Below, one piece after another: positions 1 through 5,166 of a stretch of 5,166 nt of DNA (positions are counted from its first letter, which is position 1; each line of letters starts with the position of its first letter). Origin of the DNA: a plasmid. The notes below the pieces were generated by a model that was not told the origin of the DNA, did no database searches, and saw only the letters and a program-made list of their open reading frames with translations. The DNA is taken from assembly GCF_055900595.2 (NCBI RefSeq), contig NZ_JBVWEU010000008.1; one strand, given 5' to 3'. The position numbers and the translations under genes are program-made.

Positions 1-485
1 TCCAGTGTCACAACTTTCTGATACACCGCCGCTGTGGCGTTGTAGTTCCTGTCGAGTATTGTTTTCATTCCCCATCCGAGCACACAGAACATAACCAGAA
101 AAGCCACTGACACCCCACCCAGCCATTTCCAGCTATACCCTTTAAGGGTGTTGTATTCCTGCACGATATTGCTGTGAATTGTCGCAATATCCCTGTTCAG
201 GGCATCCGCGTTTGCCTTCATGTTTGCGACTGACTCTTCCAGCCGCTGAAAATCCTGGCTGATGCGCTCACCTATCAGTCCTGCCACGTCCAGCTTCTGC
301 ACCTCATTTCTGACTTCATCCCTGACCTGTTTTGCCACACCGTCAGAAATATCCCGATATCCGCGAAGAGTTTCCCTTGCCACAGCCAGAGAATCAGCAA
401 CAGCTTTCTGTTGCTCCATTGCGGTATGTTGCAGATGCTCCACCGATAACAGGAGCGTGAGTAATTTTTCTTCTGTGCTGGCCAT
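1..485 (-). CDS. mobB: MobB-like mobilization accessory protein (partial; 3' end beyond window start)
   Basis: Minus-strand ATG at 485..483 lies 2 nt after the mobA stop (TGA-AC-ATG). Frame stays open to position 1 (161 codons, MASTEEKLLTLLLSVEHLQ...). Hydrophobic segment WLGGVSVAFLVMFCVLGWG near the window edge suggests a membrane anchor. Position directly downstream of a MOBQ relaxase fits MobB. Not in the supplied ORF track because it runs off the window. Confidence 0.7.
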   Translation of the reverse strand, partial: MASTEEKLLTLLLSVEHLQHTAMEQQKAVADSLAVARETLRGYRDISDGVAKQVRDEVRNEVQKLDVAGLIGERISQDFQRLEESVANMKANADALNRDIATIHSNIVQEYNTLKGYSWKWLGGVSVAFLVMFCVLGWGMKTILDRNYNATAAVYQKVVTL

Positions 486-487
486 GT

Positions 488-1414
488 TCAGAATCCCATA
501 GAAAATCCACGTGACGGTGATTTAACCCGTTCAGGTGCAGTTCGGTTCTGTCTGCTCACTCTGTCTCTCATGTCAAAGCCATGCTCCCGCGCAACATCAT
601 GTTGCAGCCTTCTGACCAGTTCATGTTGCTTAACCGGAGTGTCCAGCCATTCCCTGATGTCATGCCCGACCGTTCGCGCCTGTTCAAGATGGCGGGAATA
701 GTCCGGTTCAGACCGTTTTTGCATGATGTCATGACGCTGGGCATCATCAAGCCGTCCGGCAGCTTCAAAACCCAGATGCACTTCGGGACGTCGTTCAATG
801 CCCTGTTCTTTCAGCGTCCGGCAGTCAATGAAGCCCCTTTCAAAGCCATGCTTTCTCATATGTTCGTTGTGCTTCACCTCCCAGCGTTTTCGCAATTCCC
901 GCAACTGCTCTTTTTGCTGAGTGAGAGTCAGGCTTCCGGAATCCTTTTTCGCACCTCCCCGCTCGGGATACCTGGCGTTATAGCGCCGGAAATACTGTTC
1001 CGGTGTACGTTCAATGCCATCATTCACACGCTGACTCATCATGATATGCGCATGAGGCTGTTCGCCGCCGTCAATGCTCGCTTTCGGATTGTGAATGGCA
1101 AAACTCCAGGCGTGCCGTTCGCCAGCTTCCTGACGTACAAAATCCTGCACCAGTTCAAGGCGCTGTTCCGGTGTCAGTTCACGGGGTAATGCAATTTCAA
1201 GTTCCCTATAGGTCGAACCGTTCGCACGTTCAAACTGGTCAGCCGCCTGCCAGAAATGGGAAGGATTATCCCTGGCCCATTCCGGCATGTTTCCGTGTGC
1301 GGAATATTCCAAATCCTGACGGTCGCGGTATTTCTCTTTGCGCTCGATGTAATCGGCGTGGTTTGCAGCCTGCCCCTTGCCACCAAATTTAACGCTGAGG
1401 TGATAGGTTGCCAC
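488..1414 (-). CDS. mobA: MOBQ-family relaxase MobA (relaxase domain only, 308 aa)
   Basis: 308-aa ORF with GTG start and GAGGG about 8 nt upstream. N-terminus MATYHLSVKF...ADYIERKEKY (catalytic Tyr region), ERANG, EIALPREL and HAHIMMSQRVNDGIER (histidine-triad motif) match my recollection of RSF1010 MobA-type relaxases. No primase-like C-terminal extension. Confidence 0.85.
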   Translation of the reverse strand: MATYHLSVKFGGKGQAANHADYIERKEKYRDRQDLEYSAHGNMPEWARDNPSHFWQAADQFERANGSTYRELEIALPRELTPEQRLELVQDFVRQEAGERHAWSFAIHNPKASIDGGEQPHAHIMMSQRVNDGIERTPEQYFRRYNARYPERGGAKKDSGSLTLTQQKEQLRELRKRWEVKHNEHMRKHGFERGFIDCRTLKEQGIERRPEVHLGFEAAGRLDDAQRHDIMQKRSEPDYSRHLEQARTVGHDIREWLDTPVKQHELVRRLQHDVAREHGFDMRDRVSRQNRTAPERVKSPSRGFSMGF

Positions 1415-1439
1415 GGTTTCAGCCCTCTGCAGGAGCGCA

Positions 1440-1480
1440 CTGTTTCTCGACGAAGGAGAGAAACATATAAGTGCGCTTCC
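1440..1480. other. oriT: oriT, RSF1010/MOBQ type (inverted repeat plus nic-site consensus)
   Basis: 8-bp inverted repeat TGTTTCTC (1441-1448) / GAGAAACA (1458-1465), followed by TAAGTGCGC (1468-1476). This closely resembles the RSF1010 oriT core as I recall it (GTTTCTCGAAGAGAAAC...TAAGTGCGCCCT, nick after TAAGTGCG). Lies between divergent mobA and mobC. Confidence 0.6.
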
Positions 1481-1590: not shown

Positions 1591-1989
1591 ATGCGCATCA
1601 GCAACATCGAATGGCTGAAGAAACGGATCGGATTCATCAGGAAGCTCGGAGAACAGACCGCACGACAGAGACAGATTATTGACCTGATCGACAACGAAGC
1701 CGGACTCACAGAACAGGAACGCAAACTTCTCCACGTACTGGCAACAGCGGAAAAAAACGACTTACAGGCACAGGAGAGCGAACGAAAACAGGCGGTCCAA
1801 AAACGAATCGAGGGAAAAAAACAACGACGGGAACGCAATCACCGGCTCTTTCTCGCGGCTGGGCTACTGATCGAAGCAGGACTGGTAGACACAAAAACAG
1901 GCGAGCTATGCTATAAAAAAGACAGGATATTACAGGCACTTAAGGAACTTAAGTACGATCTGGAGACATCCCCAAACCCAGACGCGTAA
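1591..1989 (+). CDS. mobC: MobC-like relaxosome accessory protein (132 aa)
   Basis: ATG at 1591 with GGGAG SD (1576-1580) 10 nt upstream; TAA at 1987-1989. Divergent from mobA across oriT, as in RSF1010. Segment KKQRRERNHRLFLAAGLLIEAGL resembles the conserved basic/hydrophobic core of RSF1010 MobC as recalled. The track ORF 1471..1989 (GTG start, no SD) is probably an artefactual N-terminal extension. Confidence 0.65.
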   Translation: MRISNIEWLKKRIGFIRKLGEQTARQRQIIDLIDNEAGLTEQERKLLHVLATAEKNDLQAQESERKQAVQKRIEGKKQRRERNHRLFLAAGLLIEAGLVDTKTGELCYKKDRILQALKELKYDLETSPNPDA

Positions 1990-2015: not shown

Positions 2016-2075
2016 TGGTGCTTCCTCGCTCATTCGCTCGCTACGCTCGGTCATGAGACTGCGGCGAGCACTACC
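2016..2075. other. ssi: Primosome assembly site (PriA-dependent ssi/pas), pBR322-like
   Basis: CTTCCTCGCTCATTCGCTCGCTACGCTCGGTCATGAGACTGCGGCGAGC is strongly similar to the ColE1/pBR322 sequence TTCCTCGCTCACTGACTCGCTGCGCTCGGTCGTTCGGCTGCGGCGAGCGG (recalled from common cloning-vector sequence), which corresponds to the n'-pas region. ColE2 plasmids are reported to carry ssi signals. Confidence 0.45.
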
Positions 2076-2139
2076 ACCACAATCACGCGGAAAGCCGCGC
2101 CATTGCAGGGCTGAACGGGGAAAAACGGCAAAAAACCTG

Positions 2140-2197
2140 CTGCTCAAAAAGACGCCAGAAAGGCGCTGTTATCTGATATAGGCTTATTTGGTCTACT
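2140..2197 (-). other. ori: ColE2-type origin of replication (Rep-binding / primer RNA site)
   Basis: Directly 3' of rep and overlapping its stop codon. The rep-sense strand reads TAGACCAAATAAGCCTATATCAGATAACAGCGCCTTTCTGGCGTCTTTTTGAGCAGC, which matches my recollection of the ColE2-P9 minimal origin (AGACCAGATAAGCC..TATCAGATAACAGCGCC..TTTGGCG). Confidence 0.6.
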
Positions 2198-3107
2198 CTA
2201 CGAGACCTCGTTTTTTCAGTTGGTAATACCAGGCGCGACTGATCCCTAATGCCTCCCACGGTTTCAGCGTGCGTGCAGATGTAGCTACTGTGCTGCGCTT
2301 AGACTTAGAACCGCCCTTGCGACCGCGTGCAGCCTGAATTTCTGGCGTGTGCGTATCAGCCACATACTGTGCGAAAGTTTCCGGCGTGAAGTTCCTGTGC
2401 GTGTATTTCGCAATGCTCTTGCCAATAGCCCGACATTCAGCCAGTGAAAGCGGAACGGGAAGCGATGCATTGTACATTTCGACACGCTGGATCACCGCTT
2501 CAAGCCACTGTGAGAACGCTGGCCAGCCCTGACGAATCGCCCTGTAAGCCCATTTGCGCGTCATTTCGAACAGGTGGCAGTTTCGCCCCATCCCGTAATG
2601 TTTATCGATGCTACGACGCTCTGAGGCGCTCAAATCGAGATAATCAGCCAGTTCATCGAGGGTATAGGCTTCCTCGCGCCACTCCATCACCAGCCATTCC
2701 AGGTGGAACGGATTTTTGCAAATCAGGCCGCTGTAGTTCACATCCGCACAAAGTTTCTCACACAGCGAACGTTCAACCGCTGCGGCATATTTCAGCGCCT
2801 TAACCGAGGCATCAGGCGCGGTTCTCACGGCGATGTTGAGTGCGTAGAGCAGGTGAGCGTGTCCGTTCACAGGATTTTTAACGGTGATGTTCGGCGCGGG
2901 AGCGTTCCGGTCGCTCCAGTCAATCGCAGCCCCCTCGCGGTCAACGTCAAAAACCAGCCAGAACTGTGCATGAGGCTGGTTCTGCTGGATATACCGTGCA
3001 AGAAGCGCGCGCCCTTTGCCGGAGATACGAAGGCCGAAAGCGAGATCATCCGTGTGATAGGGACGGTGGGGTAAATTTTCTTCGAAGTATTGAAGCGCGG
3101 CGCTCAT
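2193..3107 (-). CDS. rep: ColE2-type replication initiator Rep (primase-like, 304 aa)
   Basis: 304-aa ORF, ATG at 3107..3105 with AAGGA SD 10 nt upstream. Sequence (MSAALQYFEENLPHRPY..., FDVDREGAAIDWSDRNAPAPNITVKNPVNGHAHLLYAL, GKSIAKYTHR) matches my memory of the ColE2/ColE3 Rep family. Origin-like sequence lies immediately downstream, as in ColE2. Confidence 0.85.
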   Translation of the reverse strand: MSAALQYFEENLPHRPYHTDDLAFGLRISGKGRALLARYIQQNQPHAQFWLVFDVDREGAAIDWSDRNAPAPNITVKNPVNGHAHLLYALNIAVRTAPDASVKALKYAAAVERSLCEKLCADVNYSGLICKNPFHLEWLVMEWREEAYTLDELADYLDLSASERRSIDKHYGMGRNCHLFEMTRKWAYRAIRQGWPAFSQWLEAVIQRVEMYNASLPVPLSLAECRAIGKSIAKYTHRNFTPETFAQYVADTHTPEIQAARGRKGGSKSKRSTVATSARTLKPWEALGISRAWYYQLKKRGLVE

Positions 3108-3124
3108 GTGTTACGATTCCTTCC

Positions 3125-3203
3125 AGGTTATCGACCGACATCGCCCCTGTATTTTCGTGAAAGTCTTGGCGGATAGACACGAATTTCAGGGGCGTTTGTT
3201 TTT
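3125..3203 (+). ncRNA. Putative antisense RNA (RNAI-like) complementary to the rep mRNA leader
   Basis: Bipartite hairpin: outer stem CGCCCCTG (3142-3149) / CAGGGGCG (3187-3194), inner stem TTCGTG (3154-3159) / CACGAA (3178-3183), followed by TTTGTTTTT (3195-3203) on the + strand only. Candidate + promoter TTGAAG (3090-3095), 16-nt spacer, TGT-TACGAT (3109-3117) overlaps the rep start. The 5' end is a guess. Confidence 0.4.
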
Positions 3204-3262
3204 CAGTCGCTTACACTACCCCCAACGACAAAACCTGTCGAGCCTTCCCGCAAATCCGATCC

Positions 3263-3290
3263 ATTTACCATAACTCCCGTTGTACGTACC
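3263..3290 (-). other. cer-like XerC/XerD recombination core (multimer resolution site)
   Basis: Minus strand reads GGTACGTACAA-CGGGAG-TTATGGTAAAT. XerD arm is identical to the ColE1 cer XerD site (TTATGGTAAAT); XerC arm is 10/11 to cer GGTGCGTACAA. Central region is 6 bp. Confidence 0.65.
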
Positions 3291-3391
3291 ATGTAAAACG
3301 CCCTCAATCGCTTTCTGGCGCAAAAAACGCAAAAAGACAAGAAAACACCAGGCCAAACCAGAAAAACGCGTCAGAAACGTTTTCAGAGCGT

Positions 3392-3405
3392 TGCATAACT
3401 ATGCA
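3392..3405. promoter_or_regulatory. ARG-box-like palindrome (possible ArgR accessory site of the cer-like locus)
   Basis: TGCATA-AC-TATGCA palindrome, about 120 bp from the Xer crossover region on the XerC side, where cer carries its ArgR site. Pattern TGnAT-N4-ATnCA versus ARG-box TGAAT-N4-ATTCA. Confidence 0.3.
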
Positions 3406-3532
3406 CGAAAGCGATGTGCGATCGGTTTCGTGCGTTCTGAACACCGAACGGCTCAAAACGACAAGTTTTCTCCCCTGGTGCGTGGCGCTCTGACGGGGTT
3501 TCCTGTTTCCAAACTTCACATCTCGCCAGGAC

Positions 3533-3556: not shown

Positions 3557-3691
3557 TGGCAAGAATCAGAGTCTATGGGAAATATTTTAGTTATCGGATG
3601 CTCAATATTCACAAACGCAAAAAATGCCTCAGTGATGCCCTAAAACAACCTTTCCAGAAGGAGTCCGCGCTTTACGATGCACGGAAGAGAT

Positions 3692-3713
3692 AAAAAACCC
3701 CACAAAAGTGGGG
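3692..3713 (-). terminator. Rho-independent terminator (minus strand) at the backbone/AT-rich boundary
   Basis: Minus strand: CCCCAC-TTTT-GTGGGG followed by TTTTTT. Confidence 0.5.
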
Positions 3714-3940
3714 AACCAAGAGAAACAACAATTACAGGTTGTTGGTTGTGTTCGAACAACGATGAAGTAGCTACGCTAAATAATAATTACCGTACAGGCC
3801 CTACATATTCAACACTAAATTTAAGATCCTGACGAAGGATTTATAAATGCACGAAAACACATAGACAGACAAATTCACTAAATTCATACACAAAAACAAG
3901 TGTAGTTTTCTAAGTAAATTAGATTCGACAACCAATTAGT

Positions 3941-3949
3941 TTATCCACA
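3941..3949 (+). promoter_or_regulatory. DnaA box consensus (TTATCCACA)
   Basis: Exact 9-mer TTATCCACA inside the A/C-rich tract. Only one copy seen, so function is unproven. Confidence 0.3.
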
Positions 3950-4097
3950 TCGCATTCCACTCTTGCTACACCAATCACATTTCTTGATATGTAATAGCAG
4001 AAAAAATAAAACCAGACACCAATAGACCAAAAAACAAACATTCAACAAGAAACATTTTGAACAATATCACAAAACTGTCACAACCATCATCAGACTT

Positions 4098-4126
4098 TTG
4101 AAAAAAACTGGTTGCTGTTTTATAAA
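4098..4126 (+). promoter_or_regulatory. Candidate sigma70 promoter (TTGAAA, 17-nt spacer, TATAAA)
   Basis: -35 TTGAAA at 4098-4103, 17-nt spacer, -10 TATAAA at 4121-4126. About 105 nt upstream of the + strand terminator at 4212-4236. Confidence 0.35.
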
Positions 4127-4132
4127 AGCGAC

Positions 4133-4237
4133 TGTAACAACCTCCACTCTATAGTTCCATTAGTTTAAAGTGTCACACAAACTGAGCATCCATTTGTTTT
4201 CCTTACTTTTGCCCCTGTATTCCAAGGGGTTTTTTTA
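4133..4237 (+). ncRNA. Candidate small RNA, module 1 (promoter to terminator, about 105 nt, no ORF)
   Basis: Predicted start about 7 nt after the -10 at 4121-4126. Contains ACACAAAC, then TTTTCCTTAC (4197-4206), then terminator hairpin. No ATG in the interval. Confidence 0.3.
4212..4236 (+). terminator. Rho-independent terminator (plus strand), module 1
   Basis: CCCCT (4212-4216) / AGGGG (4225-4229) stem with 8-nt loop, followed by TTTTTTT (4230-4236). Preceded by TCCTTAC at 4200-4206. Confidence 0.5.
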
Positions 4238-4467
4238 TAACTTAAAGATTAGCACACCACACAAAAACAATAAAAAAAAACGACAAGTTATACAATAAAA
4301 CCAGTACCATCCATACAGCTAATTACATATAAATACTATTAAACCATCTGGACATTAAAAATAAACTCTTATAACATAAAATTAATGCGGTTCCGGTACC
4401 ATATGTCAGGGATAATGTGCAAATGGAGGTATCGGAACTGCATTTCAGTTCATTATTAATTAATGAC

Positions 4468-4494
4468 AAAAAAAAACCTCTGCGAGCGCAGAGG
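4468..4494 (-). terminator. Rho-independent terminator (minus strand), module 3
   Basis: Minus strand: CCTCTGC-GCTC-GCAGAGG followed by 9 T (+ strand A-run 4468-4476). Preceded on the minus strand by TCCTTAC (+ coordinates 4503..4497). Confidence 0.65.
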
Positions 4495-4526
4495 GGGTAA
4501 GGAATGTTCCCGGTCATAATATGTCG
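4468..4526 (-). ncRNA. Candidate small RNA, module 3 (about 60 nt)
   Basis: Runs from the candidate minus-strand promoter (4533-4561) to the terminator at 4468-4494. Contains ATTCCTTACCCCC immediately 5' of the hairpin. Confidence 0.3.
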
Positions 4527-4532
4527 ATAGTG

Positions 4533-4561
4533 TTTATATACATACAGAACAAGAACAACAA
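4533..4561 (-). promoter_or_regulatory. Candidate sigma70 promoter on minus strand (TTGTTG, 17-nt spacer, TATAAA)
   Basis: Minus strand -35 TTGTTG (+ 4561..4556), 17-nt spacer, -10 TATAAA (+ 4538..4533). Directs transcription toward the 4468-4494 terminator. Confidence 0.35.
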
Positions 4562-4713
4562 CCAGCCAACTAATAAATATTTTATTTTTTAGAGCTGAAA
4601 CCTTAAAGCTCACTTCCATTCCATACATTGTTATAAACCTTATGTTGAAAACTGAAAGTAAGTACGGCAGACTTATTAAGTTGCGTGCAGTCTTTTCACG
4701 TTATACAAACAAG

Positions 4714-4770
4714 AACACCTGCGAAGTTATTTCTCCTTACATATCCCCCTATGCCAACGGGGGATTTTTT
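4714..4770 (+). ncRNA. Candidate small RNA, module 2 / possible leader of the 69-aa ORF
   Basis: Weak promoter TTGCGT (4681-4686), 15-nt spacer, TATACA (4702-4707). Transcript would contain TTCTCCTTAC (4731-4740), then ATAT, then the 4743-4770 hairpin and T-run. Start is uncertain. Confidence 0.25.
4743..4770 (+). terminator. Rho-independent terminator (plus strand), module 2
   Basis: ATCCCCC (4743-4749) / GGGGGAT (4759-4765) stem with 9-nt loop, followed by T-run to 4770. Preceded by TCCTTAC at 4734-4740. Confidence 0.6.
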
Positions 4771-4842
4771 CTGGTTCACTAACGCATAAATAATAGTGAC
4801 ACCCTATCATTCACAAACCGTGATAATATAAGGATTATCATC

Positions 4843-5052
4843 ATGGCAAAATTAGGTGAAAACACCCCACATATTATCGATGCTACTGTAGATTTTATGG
4901 CATCAAGCCAGGCATTTCGTGAGTATCTGAAAAAACTTCCCCCTGATAACACAATACCGCCAGCTCTTACTGATGAGCACGTACCGTTATATATACGAAG
5001 GCTGGAATACTATCGTCTGCTTTATCGACCAAAGCAGACAGAATCATATTGA
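4843..5052 (+). CDS. Hypothetical small protein (69 aa), not recognised
   Basis: ATG at 4843 with AAGGA SD (4830-4834) 8 nt upstream; TGA at 5050-5052. Balanced codon usage, hydrophilic, no transmembrane segment. I do not recognise the family ([18 protein letters not shown]...). Competes with a minus-strand frame that is open from the window end to a TAA near 4966. Confidence 0.45.
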
Positions 5053-5166
5053 AAAAAACGGTGAACGGTTCGCGAAATCCTTTCGCGGGTCGTGAGGCGT
5101 TGGACAAGCGAAGCGCGTCAGTTTTTCCGGCTCTTCCCCGTGACAGGTTTCTCCACCAGTTTATCT

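Follow-up and report, generated by a model that had tools for sequence, protein, structure and literature searches.

We identified, on a small Escherichia coli plasmid, what is probably (at roughly two chances in three) a complete mobilization module of the pSC101 type, belonging to the RSF1010/R1162-related branch of MOBQ and occupying positions 5118..5166 plus 1..~2019 of the 5,166-nt stretch analyzed here (the window). The module would consist of an RSF1010-like oriT with a TraD-like accessory gene on one side and, on the other, a two-gene operon encoding the relaxase MobA and a small protein, here called ORF2 (Table 1).

The window represents an entire circular E. coli plasmid of ~5.16 kb with a ColE2-type replicon. 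More than 200 near-identical records were found, pCE10B among them; many circular records of 5162–5168 bp matched over the whole length at 99.7–99.9%, and a dimeric record gave one contiguous match containing an annotated CDS that bridges the window ends. Because the plasmid is a complete circle, ORF2 runs on at position 5166, wrapping the window ends. The sequence past position 1, which the initial annotation had sought for the 3′ end of the downstream gene, is thus present at the other end of the window, stop codon included.

Table 1. Features of the mobilization module and the adjoining replicon.
Feature	Position	Strand	Remarks
ORF2 (mobX-like)	join(5118..5166, 1..485)	minus	177 aa; single 534-nt CDS in the dimeric record and in pCE10B
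ORF2, 5′ part	1..485	minus	codons 1-161 and two bases of codon 162
ORF2, 3′ end	5118..5166	minus	last base of codon 162, codons 163-177, stop TGA 5120-5118
ORF2 predicted transmembrane segment, residues 122-140	66-122	minus	from hydropathy
ORF2 juxtamembrane GYSWKWL motif	120-140	minus	contains [YW]xWK
mobA/ORF2 junction	483..490	minus	TGA (490-488), AC (487-486), ATG (485-483)
mobA	488..1414	minus	GTG start; 308 aa; stop TGA at 490..488; relaxase-only MOBQ
Tyr22 (motif I, catalytic)	1349-1351	minus	aligned to R1162 Y25
Glu71/Glu73 (motif II acidic pair)	1202-1204, 1196-1198	minus	aligned to R1162 E74/E76
His108/His121/His123 (motif III three-His cluster)	1091-1093, 1052-1054, 1046-1048	minus	aligned to R1162 H112/H120/H122
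Putative oriT core	1434..1477	plus	inverted repeats, then TAAGTGCGC
oriT inner inverted repeat, TGTTTCTC/GAGAAACA	1441-1448/1458-1465	plus	
oriT outer repeat, AGCGCACT/AGTGCGCT	1434-1441/1470-1477	plus	
Accessory gene, TraD-like, in the 'mobC' position	1591..1989	plus	132 aa; divergent from mobA
ColE2-type replicon module	2020..3474	minus	rep 2193-3107 (304 aa) and flanking origin/control regions; edge of the mobilization module

MobA is predicted to be a stand-alone relaxase

By homology, MobA is a genuine stand-alone MOBQ HUH relaxase without a primase domain. Annotated in RefSeq as 'MobA/MobL family protein' (WP_001331297.1), it matched PF03389 (MobA/MobL) at 106 bits (E = 3.3e-30), above the cut-off of 26.7 bits, and PDB 2NS6 (R1162 minMobA) with E = 3.3e-38. 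Its predicted active-site residues align with those of R1162, numbered as in PMC6856555. MobA was 54% identical to pSC101 MobA and 43% identical to RSF1010 MobA over residues 1–227 (~230 aa), with nothing past that point; an IncQ1 plasmid whose MobA N-terminus is identical stood in for RSF1010 in these comparisons. Pfam returned only PF03389 and, below threshold, a relaxase-nuclease family, each matching at the N-terminus, and no RepB primase domain was found within the 308 aa. In RSF1010, in contrast, relaxase and RepB primase form one 709-aa MobA. The initial annotation had read a 308-aa MobA lacking the primase and followed by a TGA-AC-ATG junction; the coordinates, length and junction can be read directly in the sequence, and the domain assignment agrees with the Pfam result. 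Nor was a nested mobB found inside mobA: relatives do not share the open stretches that its other frames show across the relevant region.

MobA would nick oriT and then become covalently joined to the 5′ end, and the protein with its DNA strand would leave through the type IV secretion system of a helper plasmid. A primase domain would not be needed for this, because a separate ColE2-type Rep primes replication.

The oriT and accessory gene resemble those of pSC101

The region adjoining mobA contains an RSF1010-type hairpin and nick core and is the putative cognate oriT. The sequence GCGCACTTA together with GTTTCT...AGAAAC is conserved in this plasmid, pSC101, the RSF1010-like IncQ1 plasmid and three others. 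We take the nick site to lie between 1475 and 1476 on the plus strand, by analogy with R1162. Across oriT, the divergent accessory gene product was 37% identical (E = 7e-13) to the product of the pSC101 gene annotated traD; its match to PF06412 (TraD) was weak at 14.2 bits, and its Proteus homologue clears the family cut-off. The RSF1010-like IncQ1 record, unlike this TraD-like gene, is annotated with 'mobilization protein C'. A promoter scan yielded sites no more frequently than in shuffles and none near oriT, and an Rfam scan gave a single, sub-threshold match in the rep leader.

The overall plan matches the mobilization region of pSC101 (mobA, mobX, a traD-like gene and oriT), reportedly described by Meyer (2000, J Bacteriol 182:4875). 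Comparison with the pSC101 sequence (RefSeq NC_002056) showed the same gene order and orientation, a relaxase-only MobA with the same C-terminal motif and stop, a small helical protein with a single predicted transmembrane (TM) segment directly 3′ of mobA, a divergent TraD-like gene across oriT, and the same oriT core, comprising GCGCACTTA and the GTTTCT/AGAAAC hairpin. Unlike in pSC101, MobA is 63 aa shorter here (308 versus 371 aa), ORF2 lacks the Cys-containing C-terminal tail of MobX (CDGKPC), the distance from the mobA stop to its start is 2 nt as against 12 nt, and the replicon is of the ColE2 type instead of Rep_3. RSF1010/R1162 (IncQ1) likewise shares a homologous relaxase domain with the active-site residues and the same oriT core, and it encodes an accessory protein (helical N-terminal part, WxWK motif, one TM segment) just 3′ of the relaxase domain. 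Its mobB, however, is nested in mobA in another frame, whereas ORF2 follows the mobA stop.

The Rep protein matched PF03090 (E = 4.7e-43) and PF08708, and the replicon was 90% identical to that of ColE9-J at the nucleotide level over 1471 bp, with Rep also 90% identical. MOBQ42 plasmids carry essentially the same ColE2-type (Col156) replicon, and it suggested membership of MOBQ4, a family whose relaxases share ~84% mean identity over the N-terminal 300 aa and carry a long C-terminal SogL-like domain (Garcillan-Barcia et al. 2019, PMC6856555). The MOBQ4 plasmids ColE9-J and pIGWZ12 are also small enterobacterial mobilizable plasmids with oriT between divergent mobA and mobC-position genes. Membership was ruled out, however, because MobA was only 27% identical over 242 aa to ColE9-J MobA, whose C-terminal domain is SogL-like and whose ORF spans ~768 aa. 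ColE9-J yielded no ORF2 homologue and, unlike the MOBQ4 colicin plasmids, this plasmid has no colicin operon.

mobA and ORF2 are separate, intact genes

The order TraD-like gene, oriT, mobA, small TM gene recurs across relatives, in keeping with the earlier observation of a small gene right after mobA. The MobA and downstream proteins measure 371 and 194 aa in pSC101, 369 and 196 aa in Proteus plasmids, and 311–317 and 176 aa in Col3M-type and other 3-kb plasmids; in metagenomic relatives with ORF2 proteins 18–28% identical to that of this plasmid, they measure 309–353 and 174–241 aa, and the genes overlap by 11–23 nt.

The initial annotation had also raised the alternative that mobA and ORF2 are a pseudogene split by a frameshift near 485–490 in a longer ancestral ORF; that ancestor could have been, for instance, a relaxase fused to a C-terminal domain. 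The tight 2-nt junction and the long-fusion MOBQ relaxases found elsewhere (RSF1010, MOBQ4/ColE9-J) are all that speaks for such an origin, which we regard as extremely improbable. Among the 120 best homologues listed, none ran through the junction as a MobA-ORF2 fusion: relatives at 61–97% identity were 303–317 aa long, the next clade was 355–375 aa long, with the pSC101 clade at 369–371 aa, and the few longer homologues carried unrelated Pfam domains. The mobA stop follows a C-terminal end, SRGFSMGF, and this motif and the stop are kept out to pSC101. ORF2 always has its own ATG, which is conserved and opens a MAST(E/D) N-terminus, and its frame relative to mobA differs by lineage, lying in frame after the stop in pSC101, at +2 here, and overlapping elsewhere; a stop in the ORF2 frame is also present 12 codons 5′ of the ATG. 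Both ORFs are under strong purifying selection (dN/dS 0.08–0.25; 0.08–0.18 for mobA and 0.10–0.25 for ORF2), and the same structure occurs in more than 480 plasmid records. Homologue lengths, the conserved stop with its C-terminal motif and the dN/dS values effectively rule out a split gene. Conservation and selection indicate that the 177 aa of ORF2 form a real and conserved protein, and that mobA-ORF2 is an intact pair.

Since the ATG lies 2 nt past the mobA stop and an SD-like GGGA is present within the last mobA codons, 8 nt 5′ of the ATG, the mobA mRNA likely directs ORF2 synthesis too. Initiation would fall to ribosomes arriving from termination on mobA or to ribosomes loading at the junction. 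Translational coupling, which the initial annotation had suggested, is made plausible by this close spacing and would tie synthesis of the MobX-like protein to that of MobA. The spacing is not conserved, however, ranging from -23 to +12 nt among relatives, and those with +11 and +12 spacing have a good SD of their own (AAGGGG, AGGA), which makes it equally possible that ORF2 is initiated independently. The RNA fold of the junction was no better than shuffles (z = -0.19), which supports neither coupling nor a structure hiding the ORF2 start.

ORF2 is a candidate membrane-anchored partner of MobA

ORF2 is annotated as 'hypothetical protein' in RefSeq (WP_000168770.1), and neither Pfam nor NCBIfam gave a family assignment. 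We found no experiments on ORF2 or its close relatives, which are annotated as hypothetical proteins throughout. The predicted layout is a cytoplasmic, helical part of ~120 aa, the [YW]xWK motif, one TM helix and a short basic tail. Hydropathy analysis gave one 19-aa window with a mean Kyte-Doolittle (KD) value of 2.03, the next best reaching 0.35, and no signal peptide or lipobox was found in the protein. An AF2 model of low global confidence (pTM 0.25) predicted two long helices, 4–61 and 68–166, and no globular fold.

The closest named relative of ORF2 is MobX of pSC101, to which weak sequence similarity suggests that ORF2 is a diverged relative. BLASTP aligned the two with E = 0.002 over 138 aa at 24–27% identity, with the TM segments in register. 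MobX scored 18.1 bits against an HMM derived solely from ORF2-family sequences, a value that is weak in absolute terms and comes from a method that over-scores low-complexity helical/TM proteins; the highest scores were 9.0 bits among 1000 full shuffles and 12.7 bits among 1000 segment-preserving shuffles. Comparison of the ORF2 family with MobX by hhalign gave a probability of 77% and E = 2e-5 over 89 columns, again for proteins of a helical/TM kind that is prone to over-scoring.

The name mobB, which the initial annotation had given to this gene and had made dependent on MobB homology, does not stand on sequence grounds. ORF2 did not match PF17511 (Mobilization_B) at E <= 0.1, RSF1010 MobB reaching 1.1e-61 as a control; the ORF2-family HMM scored RSF1010 MobB at 0.5 bits, a level reached by 210–374 of 1000 shuffles, BLASTP against it gave E = 0.74, and hhalign gave a marginal 51% over 44 columns.

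The likeness to MobB lies in architecture. ORF2, MobX and MobB are built alike: the N-terminal part is helical, and it is followed by a [YW]xWK motif, a single predicted TM helix and a short tail, with one hydrophobic 19-mer (KD 2.0–2.4) after 98–121 hydrophilic residues; this window lies at 99–117 in MobB and at 122–140, after a 121-aa helical part, in ORF2. IncQ MobB is described, via PMC4655240, as having a hydrophilic N-terminal MobA-binding part and a C-terminal membrane segment; its function is taken from that secondary citation and from the title of Parker & Meyer 2007. Because architecture and gene position agree, a MobB-like role is our best guess for ORF2. It may act like R1162 MobB, as a membrane-anchored adaptor binding the relaxase or relaxosome, and would then lift transfer frequency by presenting the relaxase to the coupling protein of the helper.

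True orthology of ORF2 to IncQ MobB, with the gene here un-nested from mobA, is unlikely. The RSF1010 mobB start falls at mobA codon ~250, shortly past the end of MobA similarity (~227–230) and hence at a matching position, the two proteins share their architecture, and hhalign aligns the ORF2 family, MobB and MobX at the juxtamembrane motif (GYSWKW in one, GWHWKLW in the other) at 26–51% probability. Yet the Pfam, NCBIfam, BLASTP and HMM comparisons were all negative, and a profile searched against 1.84 billion representative proteins found only 74 matches, with no 137-aa IncQ MobB among the near-full-length divergent ones inspected (146–241 aa).

A broader reading, which we offer as speculative, is that ORF2, MobX and IncQ MobB form one ancient family of tail-anchored relaxase-docking adaptors marked by a juxtamembrane [YW]xW[KR]. 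The un-nested mobA-adaptor operon would be ancestral, and the nested mobB of RSF1010 would have arisen by mobA read-through in another frame across the adaptor gene (overprinting), fusing relaxase to primase. If this were true, the conserved C-terminal RG[FWY]S tail of MobA would be the element recognised by the adaptor or the coupling protein.

ORF2 could also be a membrane protein without a relaxosome role that rides in the mobilization operon, such as an entry-exclusion, immunity or plasmid-maintenance factor. In small mobilizable plasmids such as ColE1, exclusion-type genes adjoin the mob genes; ORF2 has a single predicted TM segment and no family annotation, and mobA and ORF2 can recombine independently, being 99% and 85% identical, respectively, between two plasmids. 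We consider this quite improbable, however: ORF2 is always attached 3′ of a MobA/MobL gene, whichever the replicon type (ColE2, Col3M, Rep_3), down to 18–28% identity; in pSC101, its closest named relative, MobX, has the designation of mobilization protein; and ORF2 has neither signal peptide nor lipobox and, like MobB, consists mostly of a hydrophilic, helical N-terminal part.

Significance of the module

As transfer modules go, the mobA-ORF2 pair is ordinary and intact, and the small E. coli plasmid that bears it is very common. A relaxase-only MOBQ protein with a small downstream accessory gene has been known since pSC101, and beyond the two points that follow current understanding is unchanged. 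One ColE2/Col156 replicon goes with two MOBQ modules, the pSC101-like one here and MOBQ4 in colicin plasmids, so replicon typing alone fails to predict the mobilizing helper plasmids. A gene present in more than 480 sequenced enterobacterial plasmid records, and now labeled 'hypothetical protein', could reasonably be renamed a MobX-like mobilization accessory protein.

A complete circular plasmid with adjoining mobA and ORF2 genes

End to end, the window is 99.7-99.9% identical to many circular plasmid records from E. coli, 5162-5168 bp in length and including pCE10B (NC_017648), and a dimeric plasmid record matches it as one contiguous piece. The window is the whole plasmid, not a fragment. 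The initial annotation had accurately described the end of mobA, the AC spacer and the ATG of an open second frame (ORF2), which has no stop up to window position 1. On a circular reading, the sequence beyond position 1 is supplied by the other end of the window (5118..5166), and in matching records ORF2 is one annotated 534-nt CDS that crosses the cut point.

Features of the plasmid
Feature	Position	Strand	Remarks
ORF2	join(5118..5166, 1..485)	minus	177 aa, circular reading
mobA/ORF2 junction	TGA 490-488, AC, ATG 485-483	minus	read from sequence
mobA ORF	GTG at 1414 to TGA at 490-488	minus	308 aa, read from sequence
oriT outer repeat	1434-1441/1470-1477		AGCGCACT/AGTGCGCT
oriT inner inverted repeat	1441-1448/1458-1465		TGTTTCTC/GAGAAACA
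oriT core	after the repeats		TAAGTGCGC
ColE2/Col156-type replicon	2020-3474		90% identical to ColE9-J replicon
69-aa ORF	4843-5052	+	WP_001096196.1, hypothetical protein in all records

MobA, a relaxase without a primase domain, and its oriT

MobA scored 106 bits with the Pfam MobA/MobL family (PF03389; cut-off 26.7) and matched 2NS6, the crystal-structure construct of R1162/RSF1010 MobA, with an E-value of 3.3e-38. Full-length RSF1010 MobA (709 aa) was 43% identical over residues 1-230, and past residue 230 the two proteins gave no alignment. Tyr22, Glu71/Glu73 and His108/121/123 align to R1162 Y25, E74/E76 and H112/H120/H122, the active-site numbering of PMC6856555. Because of these matches, the aligned active site and the end of similarity at residue ~230, MobA is a relaxase without a primase domain, as initially proposed.

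Immediately before its stop, MobA closes with a conserved motif that reads SRGFSMGF in this plasmid and DKGWSFSR both in pSC101 and in plasmids of Proteus; the 3-kb relatives have SRGFSISR and SRGYDYER, and more distant ones the weaker forms RGFGYGD and RGEYGD. The tail encoded at 488-520 (minus strand), (S/D)(R/K)G(F/W/Y)S..(F/R)-stop, is thus kept from this plasmid to pSC101; RSF1010 MobA/RepB ends in DRGGPDFSM-stop. The motif may be a shared candidate recognition or secretion signal.

An RSF1010/pSC101-type oriT lies in the 176 bp that separate mobA from the divergent gene; its core and hairpin are shared by six plasmids, pSC101 and an RSF1010-like IncQ1 plasmid among them. The outer inverted repeat around the hairpin (1434-1477) includes the nick-core sequence itself, and GTGCGC flanks the hairpin on both sides, invariant in the same six plasmids. 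By analogy with R1162, we take the putative nick to lie between 1475 and 1476 on the + strand.

The mobA/ORF2 junction

A frameshift that split a longer ancestral ORF had been offered as an alternative origin of the short MobA. In the 120 matches listed, lengths are 303-317 aa for MobA homologues with 61-97% identity and 355-375 aa for the next clade; a MobA-ORF2 fusion of ~485 aa is absent from them, and the few longer entries, with their unrelated Pfam domains, have the look of chimeric assemblies. ORF2 in relatives always has its own ATG, with a conserved N-terminus MAST(E/D). Across lineages it starts +2, +2, +2, +11, +12 and +12 nt from the mobA stop, and in others it overlaps mobA by 11, 11 and 23 nt; this varied offset is therefore unlike the product of a recent frameshift. 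Pairwise dN/dS (Nei-Gojobori) was 0.08-0.18 for mobA and 0.10-0.25 for ORF2, and 516 plasmid records contain ORF2, at least 80% of it being covered in 483. Homologue lengths among the 120 listed matches, the conserved C-terminal motif and stop, the ORF2 ATG and low dN/dS in both genes rule out the frameshift origin.

Since the gap is 2 nt and an SD-like GGGA lies within the last mobA codons, 8 nt upstream of the ORF2 ATG, joint translation of the two genes from a single mRNA is likely and their translational coupling plausible. As for the coupling suggested initially, RNA folding at the junction was no better than in shuffles (z = -0.19), and lineages conserve a tight linkage, within -23 to +12 nt, rather than a spacing of exactly 2 nt. 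Lineages with 11-12-nt gaps have a good SD of their own (AAGGGG or AGGA).

In a comparison with pSTEC17_183-g, MobA of this plasmid is 99% identical (dS 0.036) but ORF2 only 85% (dS 0.38). This suggests that a recombination breakpoint lies at the junction or shortly beyond it, the genes being exchanged as separate units.

ORF2 as a mobX-like gene

ORF2 is annotated as a hypothetical protein in every annotated record and matched no Pfam or NCBIfam family. For comparison with RSF1010 MobB, we took the 137-aa ORF nested in mobA of an IncQ1 plasmid; this sequence matched PF17511 (Mobilization_B) at 1e-61. The initial label mobB finds no backing in the sequence: ORF2 did not match PF17511, and BLASTP against RSF1010 MobB was not significant (E 0.74).

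pSC101 has the same layout, with a 371-aa mobA, a 12-nt gap, a 194-aa gene named "mobilization protein MobX" in RefSeq, and a divergent gene annotated traD across oriT. Its MobA is 54% identical to that of the window, and its traD product 37% identical to the TraD-like protein (E 7e-13). This shared gene context provided the lead to MobX, which is 24% identical to ORF2 over 138 aa (E 0.002), with hydrophobic segments in register.

An ORF2-family HMM was built from 18 sequences, with MobX-type members left out to avoid circularity, and scores were controlled with composition-preserving and segment-preserving shuffles. pSC101 MobX scored 18.1 bits, a value reached by 0/2000 shuffles (maxima 9.0 and 12.7), and RSF1010 MobB scored 0.5 bits, matched by 210/1000 and 374/1000 shuffles. 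With hhalign, the ORF2 and MobX families aligned at 77% probability (E 2e-5, 89 columns), ORF2 and MobB at 51% (44 columns), and MobX and MobB at 27% (17 columns), one juxtamembrane motif (GYSWKW, RYTWKS, GWHWKLW) anchoring all three alignments. MobX thus appears to be the nearest named relative of ORF2, and "mobX-like" would be a better label than "mobB"; ORF2 may nevertheless share an ancestor with IncQ MobB.

Profile searching of 1.84 billion representative proteins found 74 ORF2 relatives, the full-length ones being 146-241 aa. In all three divergent relatives with contigs examined, the gene lies directly 3' of a 309-353-aa MobA/MobL gene, itself preceded by a small divergent gene. ORF2 is thus a conserved relaxase-linked gene. 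On a 3.6-kb metagenomic contig, a 214-aa pentapeptide-repeat protein (2677-3321) adjoins a distant mobA-ORF2 relative and could be a candidate Qnr-type quinolone-resistance cargo on such mobilizable plasmids.

A single TM-grade hydrophobic window (mean Kyte-Doolittle 2.0-2.4, next best at most 0.46) is present in each of ORF2, MobX and MobB; it comes after 98-121 hydrophilic residues and leaves a tail of 20-59 aa. AF2 models ORF2 as two long helices, 4-61 and 68-166 (mean pLDDT 70, pTM 0.25), and predicts no globular fold. MobB is reportedly required for MobA's type IV transport signals, going by a 2007 title of Parker and Meyer. Since ORF2 has this architecture in common with MobB, is likewise encoded just 3' of the relaxase domain and appears related to MobX, we infer a MobB-like role for it, which would act as a predicted membrane-anchored relaxase adaptor enhancing mobilization.

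In the RSF1010-type IncQ1 plasmid, mobB (787-1200) starts at about mobA codon 250, and RSF1010 similarity to the window MobA ends just before it, at residue ~227-230. This is consistent with a nested mobB sitting where a separate gene once lay downstream.

The replicon and its mobilization modules

The rep leader (3072-3195) gave a weak, sub-threshold Rfam match to PK-repBA (26 bits, gathering score 45). The stretch 3600-4840, which separates the replicon from the 69-aa ORF, is AT-rich (GC 0.31-0.37 versus about 0.52 elsewhere); no ORF in it matched a family, and several hairpins resembling terminators, with T-runs after them, occur on both strands. Neither Pfam nor NCBIfam gave a match for the 69-aa ORF, which is convergent with ORF2; in the interval between the two, at about 5070-5087, is a short palindrome, CGCGAAA...TTTCGCG.

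MOBQ42 plasmids carry a Col156/ColE2 replicon (PMC6856555). The window plasmid combines this replicon with a different, pSC101-like MOBQ module, unrelated to the MOBQ4 module of ColE9-J: the two Rep proteins share 90% identity, but the relaxases are only 27% identical, that of ColE9-J being much longer. One replicon is therefore found together with two distinct MOBQ modules. The window-type module also occurs on a Col3M-type replicon (pCGF41), and its pSC101 version on Rep_3 replicons. The mobilization module of this very common plasmid is a diverged relative of known ones.
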